Origin: a virus
Length of the DNA stretch: 64,000 nucleotides
Reading direction: 5' to 3' (one strand)
Virus record (IMG/VR): IMGVR_UViG_3300010376_000004
Shown here piece after piece: positions 3,853 to 52,431 of the stretch. The notes beneath the pieces are model-generated. The model saw only the letters and a list, made by a program, of their open reading frames with translations, did no database searches and was not told the origin of the DNA. Numbering within the stretch: the stretch's first letter is position 1; each line of letters begins with the position of its first letter. Both the position numbers and the translations under genes were made by a program.

Positions 3853-5921
3853 TAGCGCCGTCCTGCCGGTGCCCAGCGATAGCGAACGCGGCCGAGCCGC
3901 CAGAAGCTGTGCAGATCGCTCGACTGCACCGTGATCGACATTTGCCGGCCACGGAACCGGACGATCAGATACTGCGTGGACTGGGTAACCGTATAAGGTC
4001 CGTAGGTCTGCGGCGTGTCGCCAGGAAAGTTCACCACGTTAAACGTCAGGATGATCTGTGCGGCCTGTGAGGCACCGAAGAACCCCCATTTGAAGTCGGG
4101 CATGATCTGGTCGACAAAGGCAAAGTCCTCGCCTTCAGCAATAAAGAAATAGCCAGTGGTGAATGCCGCGTTTAATACCGCGCCATCAGCATCATTGGTG
4201 GTTTCATGCTGGTAGATCACGCCGCCGGTATTGGCACCGATCGGCATGCCAAGAATGCTCTGATCCATCCAGGCCGAGCGCTGCAATACGTTGGCGGCAC
4301 CATAGTCCCATGGCGCATCCGGTTCGGTGATGTTGAACTTGACGTAGCTGTCACACTCCCCGCTCGATGACGCGCTCGACGGGAATAGCCATCCTACTTC
4401 ATTAAACGGCGTATTCGGCATGGCACGAACATTTTGCGTAAAGCTTGTGTTGATGTTCTGGAATACGAAGTCCCACACCGGGCATGGCAAGACTTGTACG
4501 CCGCCTGCGGCGGCAGCATAGAAATTGGTCGGCCCCATCCAGTAAACATTTCCGCGCAGACGCTGCGCCGCATGTGAGGAAATCAGGCCTGCGCCAGAGC
4601 CAATTTCATTGAAGCCGAAGACAAAGGGCGGGCCTAAATAGTTCATTGCCCAACAGTCCAGCTCCGTCCAGATCAGGTTCTGGTTCGGAGTCGCCATGCC
4701 GCCGCGGATCGTCGTGCCTTTGGGGATGCGAAAACTGCCAGCTTGGTTTTGGTTGGCCAACGCCGTAAATTGCGTAAAGTCACCAACAGTAGACCAGCGC
4801 ACTAACAACGGATCTTGGTCAATGCCTCCCATCTGCAAGTTGACCGTTGAAGCCCAGCACACCAGGATCTGTTCTGACGTGGAAACAAAGATACCGCCAT
4901 TGAACGGCGGTGCCGTCGCCAGGATATCGGCCTGAAGAAAGCCACCAGTCGGATCGAAGAAATAAACGCCACCGCCTTGCGGACATGCCAGTGCGAACTC
5001 GCCCCAATTATCGCTAGTCCAGTCAGTTGCCGTGATCGGTGATCCGGTCGTAGCACTTCCACCGCCGCCGGTCCCAAGACCATAGCCGCCGCTGCCATAA
5101 GCACCGACCCCATAACCGGCGCCAGCAGGGGGTGGTCCCTGGCCGAGATAATAGACAATTTGGGTATTGCCAGCGTTCATCGAAAAACTGCTCGAGGCAG
5201 TCGCCTGAGTGGTCGCATTGATATTGAAGCTGTTGGGCAGGTTCAGGCCAACGACCGTGTAGTCTTTAAAAATAGTCACTCCGTTTCCGGTCGTTGAAAC
5301 CGGGAAGCTTACAATTATCCCAGCGCCAAATTGAGTGATGCCATGCCCATTCAATGTAACTTGGACAATACTGCTGCCGCTGGTGGTGGTGAACGATGGC
5401 ACGGCACCGCCGTTGCTCACATTGGCCGTTGCGTTGCTCGCAGCCAGGATCTGATAGGAACTGCCGCCCAGCGTTTGGTAAACCGGATAAATGCCGTTCA
5501 AGATGAGGCCGCCGACCGATACCGGCGTGTTGAATAGGATCGTATCGTTGAGGCCAATGCTATTAACGTTACTATCGGTAATGCTGACGACGTTACTGCC
5601 AATTGTCGTGGTGAAATTAGGCGCAAAATTTGAAGTGAATGTTCGCGGGGTAATATCCACCAAAGTGCTGCCAGTGATCATACCCAGCGTTGTGGTCGTG
5701 CCGACCAATAAATGAAGATTGCTGCTGAGATCCTCCCAAGCATGCAGATCGCGCGGCACGCCATTTAATGCAAATGGATAAAGCCGCGACCAGCCACCAT
5801 ACTTCTGCACCAATTGATCCCTGAACCGGACCAATTGGCTAGAGACAAAGCCGGCCGTCAGTAAGGTCGGTGTTCGCTCGACATTGACTCCCGGCTGCAA
5901 TGTGACTGAGCCGAACGGCAT
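3852..5921 (-). CDS. Tail nozzle/stabilisation protein (P22 gp10 / T7 gp12-like)
   Basis: 689 aa; N-terminus MPFGSVTLQPGVNVERT and C-terminus RFRGRQMSITVQSSDLHSFWRLGRVRY typical of podoviral nozzle proteins; synteny. Confidence 0.7.
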   Translation of the reverse strand: MPFGSVTLQPGVNVERTPTLLTAGFVSSQLVRFRDQLVQKYGGWSRLYPFALNGVPRDLHAWEDLSSNLHLLVGTTTTLGMITGSTLVDITPRTFTSNFAPNFTTTIGSNVVSITDSNVNSIGLNDTILFNTPVSVGGLILNGIYPVYQTLGGSSYQILAASNATANVSNGGAVPSFTTTSGSSIVQVTLNGHGITQFGAGIIVSFPVSTTGNGVTIFKDYTVVGLNLPNSFNINATTQATASSSFSMNAGNTQIVYYLGQGPPPAGAGYGVGAYGSGGYGLGTGGGGSATTGSPITATDWTSDNWGEFALACPQGGGVYFFDPTGGFLQADILATAPPFNGGIFVSTSEQILVCWASTVNLQMGGIDQDPLLVRWSTVGDFTQFTALANQNQAGSFRIPKGTTIRGGMATPNQNLIWTELDCWAMNYLGPPFVFGFNEIGSGAGLISSHAAQRLRGNVYWMGPTNFYAAAAGGVQVLPCPVWDFVFQNINTSFTQNVRAMPNTPFNEVGWLFPSSASSSGECDSYVKFNITEPDAPWDYGAANVLQRSAWMDQSILGMPIGANTGGVIYQHETTNDADGAVLNAAFTTGYFFIAEGEDFAFVDQIMPDFKWGFFGASQAAQIILTFNVVNFPGDTPQTYGPYTVTQSTQYLIVRFRGRQMSITVQSSDLHSFWRLGRVRYRWAPAGRR

Positions 5922-40806: not shown

Positions 40807-42552
40807 TTACACCGGGTATAACGCCTTCACTCTTGGCGGCATACGTCCACGCTCGCGCTCGTCATGATGCCGTTCTTCATCGGACAACAATAGCCCGGCA
40901 TCACGCGCAAAGCGCAACGCTTGCGTCATCGAGTCGACAAGATCGTCATGCCGATCGTAGGGAAACTTGGCCGCTTGCCGGATCACCAGTTCTGACCAGT
41001 CATATTTCGGTGCCCAGACCAGACCATTGGAGAACACCGGCTGGATGGCAAGCGCACGCGCCACCTTGTCGCCCTTGGTCTTGACCACCTGCACGCCGAA
41101 TTCGTGAATGCCGTAGCGGTTGCGCAACTCCTGCGCCGCGGAGTGGCCAGGGCCCTTGTCCTCGATCAAAAGCCGGTCGACCTTGAACGGACGCCCATAG
41201 AGCCACGTACAGCTGTCATAGACCCATTCCATCAAGCCCCAGTCCTTCAAGGTGCGCTGCCGCCACGCCTGATAGGTTTCATTCGCGGTGCGATCGATGC
41301 GCTTGGTCGAGAACTGCAGATGCTTAGCCCAGGCGCCGACCAGCATGATGCCGCGGCGGCCATCAGATAGATCAAAGATGCCCCATACTGTCAGCCCACT
41401 CGGGTCATTGCTCTCCTTCTCGGTGAAGGCACCATCGAGACTGGCGATGGTGTACGAGAACTCCGGAAATGTCTTAGAGGGCGGATCGTATAGTCCCCAC
41501 CATTCCGGCTGAAAAATGCCCTTGCCGCGCGGCACCGGACTTTGCTCGAATTGGCTGGCCCAGGCATAAGGACCAAGCTCCGATCTGGTGCGCGCCATCG
41601 CTTCGGCAGAGAACCGGTCAAGCCATGCCGGCTCGCCGGCATTGCCATCCAAATCGCCCGGATCAGCCCGCGGATCAACCCAGCCGATCTGGTTCTCGAT
41701 CAGAATGCCGCTATCATCAAAGGCCCGGCCAGGATCAAACTCCCACGGGATCATCAGATGGCAATAGTCAAAGTCATCACCAAGGGCGACACCGGAGACG
41801 TCATCTTCGTGCAGACGCTGCATGACGATGACGATGGCGCCATCATCGAGATTATTAAGGCGGCTGGATACGCTTTCGCGAAACCAGCGGACAGCTTTGG
41901 CGCGTTCGATATCGGATTCAGCTTCAAGCATATTATGCGGGTCATCTATTATGACCCGATCGCCTCTCTCGCCCAACGTGACGCCGCCAACCGATGACGC
42001 CAATTTCCATCCGGTGTTCTGGTTCATCACTTTGATGATCTGCGTATTGCGCATCGCCACACCATTGGCGCTCTTGGCCTTGGCACCCCATTGCGCCGAC
42101 GTCTCGATGCCATAGAGCTGCTGATATTTGGGCGAGACAAGCAAGATGCGAAACCGGTCATTGTCGCGCATCGTCAAGAGCTGCGAATAGGAGAACGTCA
42201 CATAGCGATAATGGCTCAAGCCCATCGGCCCCCACTCCCAGGCCGGCCAGAACACATCCGTCAGCAAACTCTTCATGGCACCTGGAAAGATATTGATGAG
42301 AAGCCGCTTGATCTCGCCTCTGGTGACCGCCTCGAGATGCTCGCACATCGCCCACAACGGCCAACCATCGACAAAGGCCGTTTCCGGCTCGAGCACGTTC
42401 CAGAAATAGCGCACGAAGCAGATCAATCCGCCCTGGCGCACGCCCTCATCATCATACCAGCCATAACGGCTCTGATCATGCCGCGCCTGCCGGCGATCGG
42501 CTTCAGCCTTACGGTTGAGCAGACCAGCATATTGCTTCTGGCTGACATTCAC
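40807..42552 (-). CDS. terL: Terminase large subunit
   Basis: LLINIFPGAMKS (Walker A-like), VIIDDPH (Walker B), VMQRLHEDD, nuclease domain ASLDGAF...HDDLVDSMTQAL. Confidence 0.93.
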   Translation of the reverse strand: MNVSQKQYAGLLNRKAEADRRQARHDQSRYGWYDDEGVRQGGLICFVRYFWNVLEPETAFVDGWPLWAMCEHLEAVTRGEIKRLLINIFPGAMKSLLTDVFWPAWEWGPMGLSHYRYVTFSYSQLLTMRDNDRFRILLVSPKYQQLYGIETSAQWGAKAKSANGVAMRNTQIIKVMNQNTGWKLASSVGGVTLGERGDRVIIDDPHNMLEAESDIERAKAVRWFRESVSSRLNNLDDGAIVIVMQRLHEDDVSGVALGDDFDYCHLMIPWEFDPGRAFDDSGILIENQIGWVDPRADPGDLDGNAGEPAWLDRFSAEAMARTRSELGPYAWASQFEQSPVPRGKGIFQPEWWGLYDPPSKTFPEFSYTIASLDGAFTEKESNDPSGLTVWGIFDLSDGRRGIMLVGAWAKHLQFSTKRIDRTANETYQAWRQRTLKDWGLMEWVYDSCTWLYGRPFKVDRLLIEDKGPGHSAAQELRNRYGIHEFGVQVVKTKGDKVARALAIQPVFSNGLVWAPKYDWSELVIRQAAKFPYDRHDDLVDSMTQALRFARDAGLLLSDEERHHDERERGRMPPRVKALYPV

Positions 42553-42555
42553 TCC

Positions 42556-42780
42556 TTAATGCCTTCTAATGCGTTCTAATGCGCGGCGGGCTATGATCTT
42601 GGCATCCTCGGCGTGATGACCGTTCGAAATCCGCTCCAGCGCCGTCCGCAGCCAGTCCCGCTCTGCCTGTATGGCCTCTAAGTTGTCAGCCAACTCCAGC
42701 AAATCGCGCAGCTTGGCGTTCTCGGCGGTGAGTGTTTTTACCAAGTCAACCGCGTCATGCCACTCATCTTCCCTGGCCAT
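42556..42780 (-). CDS. Small accessory protein, family Y
   Basis: AENAKLR...NGHHAEDAKIIARRALE. Confidence 0.6.
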   Translation of the reverse strand: MAREDEWHDAVDLVKTLTAENAKLRDLLELADNLEAIQAERDWLRTALERISNGHHAEDAKIIARRALERIRRH

Positions 42781-42782
42781 CC

Positions 42783-42953
42783 CTATTCCTCCAATGCTCG
42801 GCGGGCCGCTATTTGGTGCGGGAATGGATCGTCCTCGTCATATTGCATTTCGGCTATAGTTTCCAACGCCGCCCGCAGCTTGGCGTTCTCGGCCTTGAGT
42901 GGTCCGAGTTCTGCAAGATAATCTGTGTATCCCGACCCTGCTGGTATTCCCAT
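42783..42953 (-). CDS. Small accessory protein, family Y (start moved to ATG 42953)
   Basis: KAENAKLRAALE...AARRALEE. Confidence 0.6.
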   Translation of the reverse strand: MGIPAGSGYTDYLAELGPLKAENAKLRAALETIAEMQYDEDDPFPHQIAARRALEE

Positions 42954-42955
42954 TT

Positions 42956-43171
42956 CTATCCCTCCAATGCCGCGTCGATCATTTTTTGCCAATCTTCCAA
43001 TACGCCGGCTAAACCAAGCGCGCCGCCTTCAATGGGCAACAGCATTGCCAGAGTTGGCTCGCGCATCGCAGAAATGGCGGCGCGGGCCATTCTCTCATAT
43101 GAGTCAGATGTGCACGGCTCATAGGATGCGACCGCCTCAAGAGCTAGTGCCACGCGCTCGATCATGGTCAT
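42956..43171 (-). CDS. Small accessory protein, family X
   Basis: MIERVA...MARAAISAMREPT...WQKMIDAALE. Confidence 0.65.
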   Translation of the reverse strand: MTMIERVALALEAVASYEPCTSDSYERMARAAISAMREPTLAMLLPIEGGALGLAGVLEDWQKMIDAALEG

Positions 43172-43320
43172 TTGTCCTCCAATGCGCGGCGGGCTACAAT
43201 CTTAGCCTCTTCCGCATGGTGCCCGTTTGCTATTCGTGCCAGCGCCGCCCGCAGCTTGGCGTTTTCGGCCAGCGCGTCATTCAACTCGGCCGCTTCTACG
43301 AAACTCGTTCGCCGTTCCAT
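43168..43320 (-). CDS. Small accessory protein, family Y (50 aa; not in the ORF track)
   Basis: Manual translation MERRTSFVEAAELNDALAENAKLRAALARIANGHHAEEAKIVARRALEDK. Confidence 0.6.
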   Translation of the reverse strand: MERRTSFVEAAELNDALAENAKLRAALARIANGHHAEEAKIVARRALEDK

Positions 43321-43322
43321 CC

Positions 43323-43538
43323 CTATTCCTCCAATGCGGCGTCAATCATGGCCTGCCAGTTATGGCTAAATTCAAAACAGGCGTCATAGGCGGAAAGCAT
43401 TTCCTCAGACGGCTCGCGCATCGCCGCAATGGCGGTGCGCGCCATTCGTTCCATCTTGGCCGCTATAGCGACATCGGCTGGCCCATACTCCTCACCAAAA
43501 GCCGCGATAGCCAATGCCCGCGCTACGCGCTCGATCAT
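43323..43538 (-). CDS. Small accessory protein, family X
   Basis: MIERVARA...MARTAIAAMREPSEEM...WQAMIDAALEE. Confidence 0.65.
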   Translation of the reverse strand: MIERVARALAIAAFGEEYGPADVAIAAKMERMARTAIAAMREPSEEMLSAYDACFEFSHNWQAMIDAALEE

Positions 43539-43690
43539 GTCGGACGTGGAAGCACCACGTAGCTGTACATCGTTGATCCGGTAATGTGCATGTTGCTATC
43601 CGTCGTGTGGTAAAGCAGACACGGCGTATCGGCGAACCAAAACCACATCATTTCCCCACACGGCATATCGGTGAACCAAAACCACATCAT
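43535..43690 (-). CDS. 51-aa micro-ORF containing a 39-nt tandem duplication
   Basis: MMWFWFTDMPCGE-MMWFWFADTPCLL; ATGA overlaps at both ends. Confidence 0.45.
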   Translation of the reverse strand: MMWFWFTDMPCGEMMWFWFADTPCLLYHTTDSNMHITGSTMYSYVVLPRPT

Positions 43691-43896
43691 TTCCCCTCCA
43701 AGGCGGCGTCGATCATGGCTTGCCAGTGTTCGATGGCGTAGTGACCATGATAACTACGACATGCCGTTATCATCTCCTCAGACGGCTCCCGCATCGCCGC
43801 AATGGCGGCGCGGGCTACTTTCTCATAAAAGGCTTGGTGTGCGGTGCCGATCATCTGTTCCTTGATTGCCGCCGCCACGCGCTCGATCATACTCAT
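43687..43896 (-). CDS. Small accessory protein, family X (start moved to ATG 43896)
   Basis: MSMIERVAAA...ARAAIAAMREPSEEM...WQAMIDAALE. Confidence 0.65.
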   Translation of the reverse strand: MSMIERVAAAIKEQMIGTAHQAFYEKVARAAIAAMREPSEEMITACRSYHGHYAIEHWQAMIDAALEGK

Positions 43897-44102
43897 TCCC
43901 CCTCGCCATCCTCGCCCCCCATCACCCGGCGCGCAACATCCCACGGCTTGGCCTTGCCCCACACCTCAACCAAGATCCAGTCGGCAACCATCACCGCGGA
44001 AACCACCTCAGCCCTAACCTCGCTCTCGTCCCGCAATAGCGGCCGACCCGACAATAAAATCGCCGCCATCAGCGCTACACGATCCTCGCGTAACCACGCC
44101 AT
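43893..44102 (-). CDS. Hypothetical protein (start moved to ATG 44102)
   Basis: MAWLREDRVALMAAILL; ATGA coupling. Confidence 0.5.
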   Translation of the reverse strand: MAWLREDRVALMAAILLSGRPLLRDESEVRAEVVSAVMVADWILVEVWGKAKPWDVARRVMGGEDGEGE

Positions 44103-44274
44103 CTCATCCCCCACATCCCTTGGTCCACTGCCTGATCTGGCGCCGCTCCCGTACCTGCTGCCAGTCCTCAACAGCAGTGAAAGTCAACTGCACAAAAACA
44201 TAAATTCCAATAGGCCCAAAATACCACCAACACCCAGTGCGGAACCTGACCCCATAACCACCAAACCCACCCCA

Positions 44275-44511
44275 TCACTCACCCTCCCGCTTGACCCTCG
44301 CCCGACGACGTTCCCAAGTCCGTCGCGACATCCCCACCTTCTCCCACGGTCTTAACGCCGTAAAAGTCCGTCCGCGCTCCTCAATAAGCGGCCGCCCAGG
44401 CCGGCGACCACTGCCCTCCACTCCAGACCTTGGCTCAATCAGACTGCACTTCGGACATGCATCTTCCCTCCGTAGCCGCGGCGTGCCGCAATAAGCACAT
44501 CGTGTAGACAT
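44275..44511 (-). CDS. Zn-ribbon plus small DNA-binding-like protein (start moved to ATG 44511)
   Basis: CAYC...CPKC; PWEKVGMSRRTWERR. Confidence 0.55.
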   Translation of the reverse strand: MSTRCAYCGTPRLRREDACPKCSLIEPRSGVEGSGRRPGRPLIEERGRTFTALRPWEKVGMSRRTWERRRARVKREGE

Positions 44512-45092
44512 GACGGTATATTGACTGGATATTGACGCAATTGTCAAAGGCCTAACCAAAAAAAAATTTGGTGGGGCTGAGGAGGGGGATTCGCGTTTTC
44601 AGTTCCAGTTTAGGGGGGTGCCGGGGGGTCGAGGTGTCGAGGTGCCATATATAATGTGCGGAACAGAACGGGAAAGCCCTATTAGATCAAACATTTAGCC
44701 CGCAGCGGCCGGCGAGCGCGCTAGCGCCACCGGGGACGCTCGTACTTACTAACCAACGACTAATGCGCGTAAGCCATTGATATCATTGGCCGCAGATCTG
44801 TCTGCCAATCAGAGCGCCAGCGGCATACAGGCAACCAGCGAGGTCAGCCAGCGCTCGGAAACCCACATAGAACGGGCTCGGGCGAGAGAACCTAGGGCGG
44901 CGCAAATGTTTAGAGCTGGTCAGATGGTTGGAGTGGCAAGGCCTAAGGTGACGGATGTGCATCGCCATAGACCGCGAAGGCCACGCGGGCATTGCGATCT
45001 TCCTTGATGGCGTTCAGATAGCCGTAGACTTCGATATTACGGTAGCCGTAAATTGTACGCATAATCGGCAGCTTAGCCTCGATCGACGGATA

Positions 45093-45164
45093 AGCCAGCG
45101 AAATGCAGTCAACCATAATCAGCAAGCGAGCCATGGGAATGCAGCCAACCAAGAAACACTAGGG
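45093..45164 (+). repeat. Orphan two-unit TIGR-like guide array
   Basis: AGCCA-gcgaaatgc-AGTCAACCA-taatcagca-AGCG followed by AGCCA-tgggaatgc-AGCCAACCA-agaaacact-AGGG; same 36-nt pattern as the 55.7-57.1 kb arrays. Confidence 0.6.
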
Positions 45165-45926
45165 TGCCCAGCACGCGAGCCAGCGGCATGACATCAGCCG
45201 TTTTTCCGTCAGGATGATGGCTTCGAGCAATGTGGCTTCTGCGCTGGAGTTTATCAGTGTTACGGGTTGTGGTGTGATGACATCGATGGTGTGGCTTGGC
45301 GACAGCTTGTCGTAGATGCGGGCAGCAACGCCAGTATCTTTGAAGTGATGGCATTCGATGATCAGGTCGGACTTGGCCAATAATGGCTTGATGTCATCGA
45401 CCAGCATTTCCTCGCCGCCTTCATTATCGATCACGAACAGGCATGGTTGCGTCAGCTTGAGCACGCAATTGGTTTCATCGCCATGCCAAGTTTCGAGCCG
45501 ATCGCTCACGTTATTAAGCTCGGCCATTTGCCGGCAATGGCGCAATGCATCCGTTGAGATATCGATGGCAACGGCTTTGGCCTTTGGCAAGCGTTTGGCC
45601 AGACCAATGGCGTAATAGCCCTCGCAGCATCCGACATTAATGATGCTATGCGGCTTGCGGAGAATTGCCTTCTCGATCGCGTCATGCAGTTCATGTTCGT
45701 AATAGCCGGTCAGTTTCAGGCACAAATTGCCGTCATGCCAATGCGAGTCAGATGCGAAGATCGTGCCTTTGAATGGGCCAGAGCCAATGCGCCTGTTCTT
45801 GGTGGCACGGAACAGCTTGTAGTCGAGATGCTCGATGTCCATGCGGATCGACTGGAACTGGGCATCGAGTTCGGCGCGGATCTGGACGTCATCGATGCGG
45901 CCGAAACCTTCCGCAGCATCGTTCAT
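45159..45926 (-). CDS. Class I SAM-dependent methyltransferase (FkbM-like)
   Basis: IINVGCCEGYYAIGLA...AIDIS...FVIDNEGGE...LIIECH. Confidence 0.75.
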   Translation of the reverse strand: MNDAAEGFGRIDDVQIRAELDAQFQSIRMDIEHLDYKLFRATKNRRIGSGPFKGTIFASDSHWHDGNLCLKLTGYYEHELHDAIEKAILRKPHSIINVGCCEGYYAIGLAKRLPKAKAVAIDISTDALRHCRQMAELNNVSDRLETWHGDETNCVLKLTQPCLFVIDNEGGEEMLVDDIKPLLAKSDLIIECHHFKDTGVAARIYDKLSPSHTIDVITPQPVTLINSSAEATLLEAIILTEKRLMSCRWLACWAP

Positions 45927-46603
45927 GACTTATCGTCATCGCTGGGTTTATGGAACGTATAGTCGAGCTTGATGTCGACGCCGAGTTCTTTCGCCTGTTG
46001 CGCCAATTGGCTGATCAGTTCGGCATCGCTCAGTTTCGAGACATCAGATGCATCCGATGACTTGCCGAAGTTCAAGAATGCGCGCAGCTCCTTATTGGCT
46101 TGATGCTTGGACGCCAATTTCGGCACAAAACGGCCGCGGCCATCCGGCACGAGCTCATCGATCAGCTTGCGGCGGTCTGGTGTGATGTCCTCGAGCAGTT
46201 TCGGCCGCTGCCGCTTGATCTGCTCGCCTTCGATGATCTTGCCTTCATGATCGCGGGCCGGAGCGTCATAGCTCTCGAAATAGTCGCCAATATCGGCCTC
46301 ATGAACGGCCCATAGCTGCTCCTCGATGCGCTGGCGCTTCTCGATGGTTCGCTCTTCAGCCTGCCGGGTGAGATACGCGATACGATCGGCGATGGCTCGG
46401 TTCTTTTCGATCTTCCAGGCCCATTGATAGGCGCTACCAGCAGTGATCGGCTTATTGTCATTGGCTTTGCGATATGCATCGCCCCTTGGCAAAGCTTGCG
46501 CCCGGTAGCGCGCGAAACGCTCGTATTTGGCCACTTTCAGCGGCCTTGAGCCCGGAATGTATTCCACAGGCACCAATTGGTTTTTAGTCATGGCGCAGTT
46601 CAT
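45923..46603 (-). CDS. terS: Probable terminase small subunit
   Basis: ERFARYRAQ...DAYRKA HTH-like N-terminus; C-terminus SKLSDAEL; upstream of terL on the same strand. Confidence 0.55.
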   Translation of the reverse strand: MNCAMTKNQLVPVEYIPGSRPLKVAKYERFARYRAQALPRGDAYRKANDNKPITAGSAYQWAWKIEKNRAIADRIAYLTRQAEERTIEKRQRIEEQLWAVHEADIGDYFESYDAPARDHEGKIIEGEQIKRQRPKLLEDITPDRRKLIDELVPDGRGRFVPKLASKHQANKELRAFLNFGKSSDASDVSKLSDAELISQLAQQAKELGVDIKLDYTFHKPSDDDKS

Positions 46604-52261: not shown

Positions 52262-52431
52262 ATTGACCCCCTTACACTATCCACAGGTAGAAAGCTACCC
52301 ATTGACATGTGCGGTATAAATATCCTATGGGGATAAGTCTGACAAGGGTGGGATATGAACGGTCTAGCGATCATTCTAACCATTTACGCGATCGGCTTCG
52401 TCCTAGTCGGTGCCTGCGCTGTGGGGCTGCG

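Follow-up and report, generated by a model that had tools for sequence, protein, structure and literature searches.

A two-unit TIGR-like array 10.8 kb from tas in a soil phage genome: probable member of a distal array lineage and possible source of guides in trans

Annotation of the dual-repeat TIGR arrays that belong to TIGR-TasA systems (Faure et al. 2025, PMC12045711; Xu et al. 2026, bioRxiv 10.64898/2026.09.09.750476) has so far been confined to the surroundings of tas genes; the published surveys examined tas flanks only, and the 2026 survey left the question whether 'arrayless' tas genes use another guide source. The window analysed here is a stretch of 64,000 nucleotides that makes up most of a phage genome of about 68-69 kb, known only from soil metagenomes. 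It contains a tas gene flanked by TIGR arrays and, more than 10 kb away, two further TIGR-like units in tandem that lie within the packaging region. Is this mini-array a genuine TIGR array and, if so, does it still provide guides to the distant Tas protein, or is it the remnant of a longer array?

Anatomy of the mini-array

The tas gene (55956..56906, + strand) encodes a protein of the TasA type (316 aa, no nuclease domain), the presumed partner of the mini-array in trans; the window has no second tas copy. In phmmer searches against the PDB, Tas matched two proteins in their Nop domains, SpTasH (E 1.4e-7) and TaTasR (E 2e-6). Y301 of Tas aligns with the catalytic Y289 of the SpTasH dyad Y289/H296 (PMC13421893) and H310 is two residues off the position of H296: the histidine of the processing dyad was assigned by proximity, not by exact alignment. 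With this assignment, the effector is a Nop-domain Tas with a C-terminal Tyr/His processing dyad. Six TIGR units lie upstream of tas (55706..55930) and two arrays lie downstream (56938-56982, one unit; 56988-57064, two units); all are on the + strand and served as reference. Their grammar is an edge repeat AGCGAGCCA, a 9-nt spacer, a loop repeat of the form AG-N4-CCA and a second 9-nt spacer, in agreement with published arrays (PMC12045711).

The mini-array spans 45089-45169 of the + strand in an 18-nt register: edge and loop take turns twice, each followed by a 9-nt spacer, before an edge-like end. It starts with a 5'-truncated edge GATAAGCCA (45089..45097) of the xxxxAGCCA form that is also present at eight array starts in relatives (for example CATAAGCCA and AATAAGCCA). 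Unit 1 continues with spacer A (45098..45106, 9 nt), the loop AGTCAACCA (45107..45115) and spacer B (45116..45124, 9 nt), and is followed by a full edge AGCGAGCCA (45125..45133) that is identical at 9/9 positions to the edge of the tas-flanking arrays. Unit 2 has spacer A (45134..45142, 9 nt), the loop AGCCAACCA (45143..45151) and spacer B (45152..45160, 9 nt), the last two bases of which lie within the stop codon of a methyltransferase gene. The array closes with an edge-like sequence AGGGTGCCC (45161..45169) that matches the edge at 6/9 positions and is antisense to the last codons of this gene (W-A-P-stop).

The sequence-only reading had described one perfect and one near-perfect 36-nt unit in tandem, with a loop one base from a loop at 57042 and a distance of 10.5 kb to the Tas gene. 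Both units (45093-45128 and 45129-45164) have the sequence that had been claimed, and the loop at 57042, AGTCAGCCA, indeed differs from AGTCAACCA by one base. The distance of 10.5 kb holds to the first proximal array, but the tas start codon is 10.8 kb away. At the 3' end of unit 2, which had been read as near-perfect, the AG box is present; the AGCG half-edge is absent, and in its place is AGGG(TGCCC), the antisense of C-terminal methyltransferase codons. As these codons are conserved, AGGGTGCCC with its terminal AGGG is not an independent edge repeat, and the 3' processing site of a unit that ends in methyltransferase coding sequence is doubtful. Neither unit thus has two full edges: the 5' edge of unit 1 is truncated and unit 2 ends with AGGG. 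The spacers A of the two units are identical at 6/9 positions.

In most respects the mini-array resembles the described dual-repeat TIGR arrays (PMC12045711): two 9-nt repeats, edge and loop, alternate with two 9-nt spacers per 36-nt unit, all four spacers (4/4) are preceded by CCA and followed by AG, and the first edge is 5'-truncated. The same CCA box has been described for ParTasR guides. Strand and edge sequence are the same as in the arrays beside tas, and both loops fit AG-N4-CCA; their subtype, AGYYAACCA, differs from that of the proximal arrays of the same phage. In other respects the mini-array is unlike described arrays. These mostly have 5-15 units rather than two, and they are positioned upstream, downstream or inside tas, whereas the mini-array is located 10.8 kb upstream, with about ten genes in between, inside the packaging operon but on the opposite strand. 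A 3'-truncated edge and then a rho-independent terminator close the described arrays, while the mini-array has a typical start but no convincing terminator after it, and its 3' end, AGGG instead of AGCG, is coding sequence of the neighbouring gene.

The orientation antisense to late genes, and the overlap with a stop codon, had both been noted from the sequence and are borne out by the gene map. The stop codon that bounds the array on the right (45159-45161) belongs to a minus-strand gene for a SAM-dependent methyltransferase (255 aa, 45159..45926). In an alignment of ten methyltransferase homologues, W249, L250 and W253 are invariant and A251 and C252 nearly so, and the C-terminal C-W-L-A-C-W motif (C-C-W-L-A-C-W) is conserved across the family, even in a contig that has no array. 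Antisense to this tail, next to the real array, is a coding-driven look-alike, an 8/9 copy of the TIGR edge at 45174. We ruled out that the tail and this 8/9 word are former array sequence, as the W-L-A-C-W tail is found family-wide, including in the array-free contig.

On the left, the array overlaps a small minus-strand gene (44943..45134; 63 aa from ATG 45134, with alternative starts at ATG 45116 and TTG 45152). The sequence-only reading had listed it as a possible ORF and had left room for dual use or coincidence. The ORF exists: its codon-usage score is 0.25 per codon (true frames 0.31 +/- 0.13, other frames -0.40) and its core (44952-45092) is conserved. An exhaustive HMMER search identified one homologue, P0002, with 66% identity in the C-terminal 47 residues (E 3e-12) and an unrelated N-terminus; on the + strand the match runs to 45092, and the AGCCA half-edge begins at the next base. 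The caveat was justified, as the C-terminal 47 residues belong to a conserved protein while the start codon is inside the array. In fact, every candidate start of the small gene lies in the array and is antisense to a repeat end plus the first spacer base: CCA+T results in ATG 45134 and ATG 45116, and CCA+A in TTG 45152. The codons that overlap the array have a weak coding score (0.07 per codon). Taken from the end of the P0002 match at 45092 to the methyltransferase stop at 45159, the TIGR units take up precisely the 66 nt that separate the two conserved coding segments.

Chance expectation and the distal array of a sister phage

Three AG-N4-CCA repeats spaced by 18 nt occur only in the tas-flanking arrays and in the mini-array, with no match in 100 shuffles. 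When scored with a matrix built from the conserved columns of nine tas-proximal units, the two units of the mini-array reach 22.6 and 20.6 bits, more than one of the training units. Their tandem sum of 43.2 bits compares with a null maximum of 2.8 +/- 4.0 and a highest value of 25.2 in 300 Markov-1 simulations of 64-kb sequences. The profile scan proposed in the sequence-only reading was done with an Infernal sequence profile of 22 tas-proximal units from the window phage and its closest relative, searched against both strands: 45093-45133 scores 23 bits (E = 9.8e-6) and no unrelated site falls below E = 0.4. Frequent hits of similar score in shuffled sequence had been named as the result that would speak against the array; none of the 100 shuffles contained the three-repeat pattern and none of the 300 simulations reached the tandem score. 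Two weak single TIGR-like pieces, both on the + strand and neither significant, were seen elsewhere: one at 44814-44852 (7.9 bits, E 0.62), between a conserved non-coding block and the mini-array, and one at 52281-52306 (7.3 bits, E 0.94).

A Tas-based search of IMG/VR identified the closest relative, the phage contig IMGVR_UViG_3300021560_000090 (G001; its coordinates are given as L014). The Tas proteins of the two phages share 90% identity, and synteny between contig and window extends over window positions 41.3-56.9 kb. G001 has a distal array of 9-10 well-formed TIGR units on the tas strand (L014 ~4356-4690), located between a segment that matches window positions 44603-44812 and the gene of the small terminase (terS). 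The edges of this array are AGCGAGCCA or AGCGTGCCA. There is no spacer common to the G001 distal array and the window, so that spacer turnover between the sister phages is complete (two units versus 9-10, none shared). The 3' end of the G001 array overlaps the stop of another minus-strand ORF of 74 aa, and G001 has neither the methyltransferase gene nor the small gene. The CCA and AG boxes are all intact, while the flanking DNA of the window phage and G001 has diverged beyond alignment.

The loops of the distal arrays have the form AGYYAACCA in both phages (AGTCAACCA, AGCCAACCA, AGCTAACCA): AGTCAACCA is found identically at L014 4392 and AGCCAACCA is present twice in the G001 array. Such loops are absent from the ~84 non-redundant tas-proximal units of the window phage and nine relatives' loci, and among the 92 non-redundant units of the window phage and its relatives they are restricted to the two distal arrays. 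They are present in tas-adjacent arrays of other phages with Tas proteins up to 62% identical, and the subtype is therefore compatible with this Tas clade. Unit 1 of the mini-array has its counterpart in the first G001 unit that is complete (at L014 4374): in the alignment the loop is identical and spacer A agrees at 6/9 positions. Together with the 6/9 likeness of the two spacers A within the window, this points to descent of both distal arrays from a common 5' end, with local duplication.

Synteny, the shared loop subtype and the unit alignment indicate that the mini-array is a much shorter orthologue of a distal array lineage and no coincidence. The stretch 45089-45169 is thus very probably a true TIGR array of this lineage, separate from the arrays that flank tas; the earlier proposal of a separate TIGR array gains from the identical strand and grammar and from the larger array at the same place in the sister phage.

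Three relatives that are more distant, with complete or near-complete genomes, have all their arrays less than 5 kb from tas and on the tas strand. A terS-based search for further relatives returned one fragment, which ends 620 nt after terS and carries no array, and a DNA search of the GenBank phage collection gave no match. One distal spacer A of G001, TATGACGAT (L014 4564-4572), is identical at 8/9 positions to a proximal spacer A of the window, CATGACGAT (present at 55715-55723 and 55895-55903), a hint that the arrays share targets or have exchanged units.

Among the contigs of four soil DNA runs, those of two runs contain the array stretch unchanged, and both runs may be its source. The contigs of one soil run break at 45036 and restart at 45176, a gap that carries no weight as evidence, and a 151-nt contig of a fourth soil run is an exact match to 44592-44742.

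Guide source, remnant or other role

About 265 nt upstream of the mini-array (+ strand), between the terminase genes, is a conserved non-coding block (44560..44825); its counterpart in G001 (L014 3920-4174) is ~180 nt upstream of the array there. The block contains a G-rich word, the perfectly conserved TATATAAT and a 72-nt stretch with 93% identity between the window and G001. Its first half (~85 nt) is also found in two further phage fragments without TIGR units, including that of a third relative; one match is at L151 8648-8722. Promoter, leader and packaging site are all conceivable roles of the block. A role as leader of the array is unsupported, given the presence of its first half in the TIGR-free fragment of the third relative, and a blastn-short search of the fetched relatives' loci did not find the block upstream of any other array. 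Between the large terminase gene and the block are direct repeats with a period of ~370 nt and 60-80% identity (42575-43960), which are tandem paralogous small minus-strand genes (~70 aa).

Scans for transcription signals found neither a sigma-70-type promoter upstream of the distal array on the + strand nor a convincing terminator downstream of it, in the window or in G001; a weak 4-bp hairpin with a T-run is present ~25 nt downstream of the mini-array. The RNA fold of 44655-45215 is not more stable than that of shuffled sequences (z = +1.2), and an Rfam scan of 42500-46000 had no match at E <= 1. Searches of sequencing runs for the phage listed no RNA data set.

Our preferred reading is that 45089-45169 is a genuine short distal dual-repeat array which, if its + strand is transcribed, would feed guides to TasA in trans; for this whole statement we estimate a probability of roughly 0.55. 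Transcription, processing, loading in trans and any target of the mini-array are the parts that we infer. Whether it still yields one or two Tas-loaded guides in trans is, judged from the sequence, an evenly balanced question. The array lineage occupies the part of the packaging region that separates the genes of the small and large terminase, and the two units run in the direction of tas; in the window phage the array is squeezed into the 66-nt gap between the methyltransferase stop and the conserved core of the small gene. The proposed mechanism is as follows. If the + strand is transcribed, a dimer of TasA (55956-56906) would bind the CCA and AG boxes and cut the edge at about 45128/45129. 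This would release at least the first 36-nt guide (45093-45128), predicted to start at the AGCCA at 45093, and possibly the second (45129-45164). The guides would direct TasA to 18-bp DNA sites, where transcription would be blocked rather than DNA cut. TasA proteins are RNA-guided repressors (bioRxiv 10.64898/2026.09.09.750476), so that the mini-array would be expected to add one or two guides for DNA binding at specific sequences.

In favour of a working guide source are the intact boxes and central edge despite diverged flanks, the usual truncated-edge start, the large array that the sister phage has kept at the same site, and the processing tyrosine of Tas. In experiments, short arrays (one to three units) have been processed; the published minimal arrays needed full edges (PMC12045711). 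Against a guide source are the negative promoter and terminator scans, the position antisense in a late operon, the overlap with the start of a real gene, the small number of two units, neither with two full edges, and the closeness of all arrays to tas (within 5 kb) in the complete, more distant relatives. Target searches covered both possible tandem arrangements of each guide: neither in the window and G001 (up to 3 mismatches) nor in 1.1 Mb of related loci (up to 2 mismatches) did the hits of the two guides exceed those of shuffled-spacer controls.

The main rival, possible but on the doubtful side, is a silent remnant: a longer ancestral array would have been cut down to two units by the gain of the methyltransferase gene and the small gene, would no longer be transcribed or processed, and would survive because it supplies the start codon and N-terminus of the small gene. 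The difference between two units and the 9-10 of G001 fits this, as do the negative promoter and terminator scans, the replacement of the 3' edge by coding sequence, and the fact that both flanking genes are missing from G001. In addition, homology breaks off at either border of the array, on the right with the methyltransferase stop (45159-45161) and on the left where the P0002 match ends (45092). However, every box position and the 9/9 edge are intact in surroundings that have diverged beyond alignment, and the array start is of the normal type. Moreover, conservation between the small gene and P0002, its only homologue, does not extend to the N-terminus, and coding constraint is therefore no explanation for the exact repeat sequences.

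A more elaborate version of the guide-source reading, which we regard as unlikely, is that the distal array evolves separately as a guide cassette, has a promoter and loop subtype of its own and programs the single TasA in trans. The antisense position would then time its expression: on before late transcription, and turned off by the converging late transcript. If so, arrays far from tas would be a general unannotated guide source that could explain 'arrayless' tas genes.

Very unlikely is a role in cis, with the + strand providing antisense RNA against the small-gene and methyltransferase messages, or with the array DNA mattering mainly because the small protein starts there and has its N-terminus encoded there. 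In favour are the antisense position in the late operon, the candidate starts of the small gene (ATG 45134, ATG 45116, TTG 45152), each of which is the antisense of a repeat end, and the array of G001, which likewise overlaps the stop of a minus-strand gene at its 3' end. But G001 has its array without the small gene, the codons shared with the array are only weakly coding (0.07 per codon), and the scans of the + strand found no promoter.

The weakest explanation, a chance or coding-driven look-alike that arises from codons of the overlapping minus-strand genes and is unrelated to TIGR, is highly improbable and close to refuted: the antisense of the methyltransferase W-L-A-C-W tail alone makes both the edge-like word at 45174 and the AGGGTGCCC end, so that coding sequence is able to mimic single repeats, but unit 1 and most of unit 2 lie outside this gene, the array-overlapped N-terminus of the small gene is not conserved, the profile E-value is ~1e-5 with a tandem score reached in 0/300 simulations, and the syntenic 9-10-unit array of G001 has the same rare loop subtype in a region without homologues of the overlapping genes.

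Relation to known guide arrays

The nearest analogy to a genuine distal array is an orphan or distal CRISPR array that uses Cas proteins encoded elsewhere: in both cases the guide array is detached from its effector and presumably acts in trans, and like orphan CRISPR arrays, the mini-array is short in comparison with the array of a related genome. Unlike CRISPR, with which it is not related, the TIGR system relies on an effector with a Nop domain, has split spacers in tandem and is not known to have adaptation machinery. A second likeness is to the intragenic TIGR units within tas (Xu et al. 2026), in which guide units also overlap protein-coding sequence; those units are on the sense strand of tas, whereas the mini-array overlaps the start of an unrelated small gene in antisense and is an example of guide repeats that give a start codon to an antisense gene.

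Published surveys were limited to the flanks of tas; the conserved site described here lies beyond that range, at a distance of more than 10 kb, and its arrays have a loop subtype of their own and full spacer turnover. The array lineage has been kept 10.8 kb from tas in two sister phages, which means that arrays can live far from their effector; array searches should therefore cover whole phage genomes. The distal array bears on the question of 'arrayless' tas genes, and with one Tas and two array classes the phage is a small natural system in which trans-loading can be tested.

Arrays far from tas may recur: a distant relative with a Tas of 31% identity has a TIGR-like array (L010 20100-20650) 9-9.5 kb downstream of tas and on the same strand. 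The edge repeat permits no inference of the host, as it is present in >120 genome contigs of many phyla, and the family of this edge and loop unit is thus very widespread. The same edge and loop unit was found on at least nine contigs of one Wenzhouxiangellaceae MAG (L050, L060, L062, L068, L074, L077, L095, L097 and L101).
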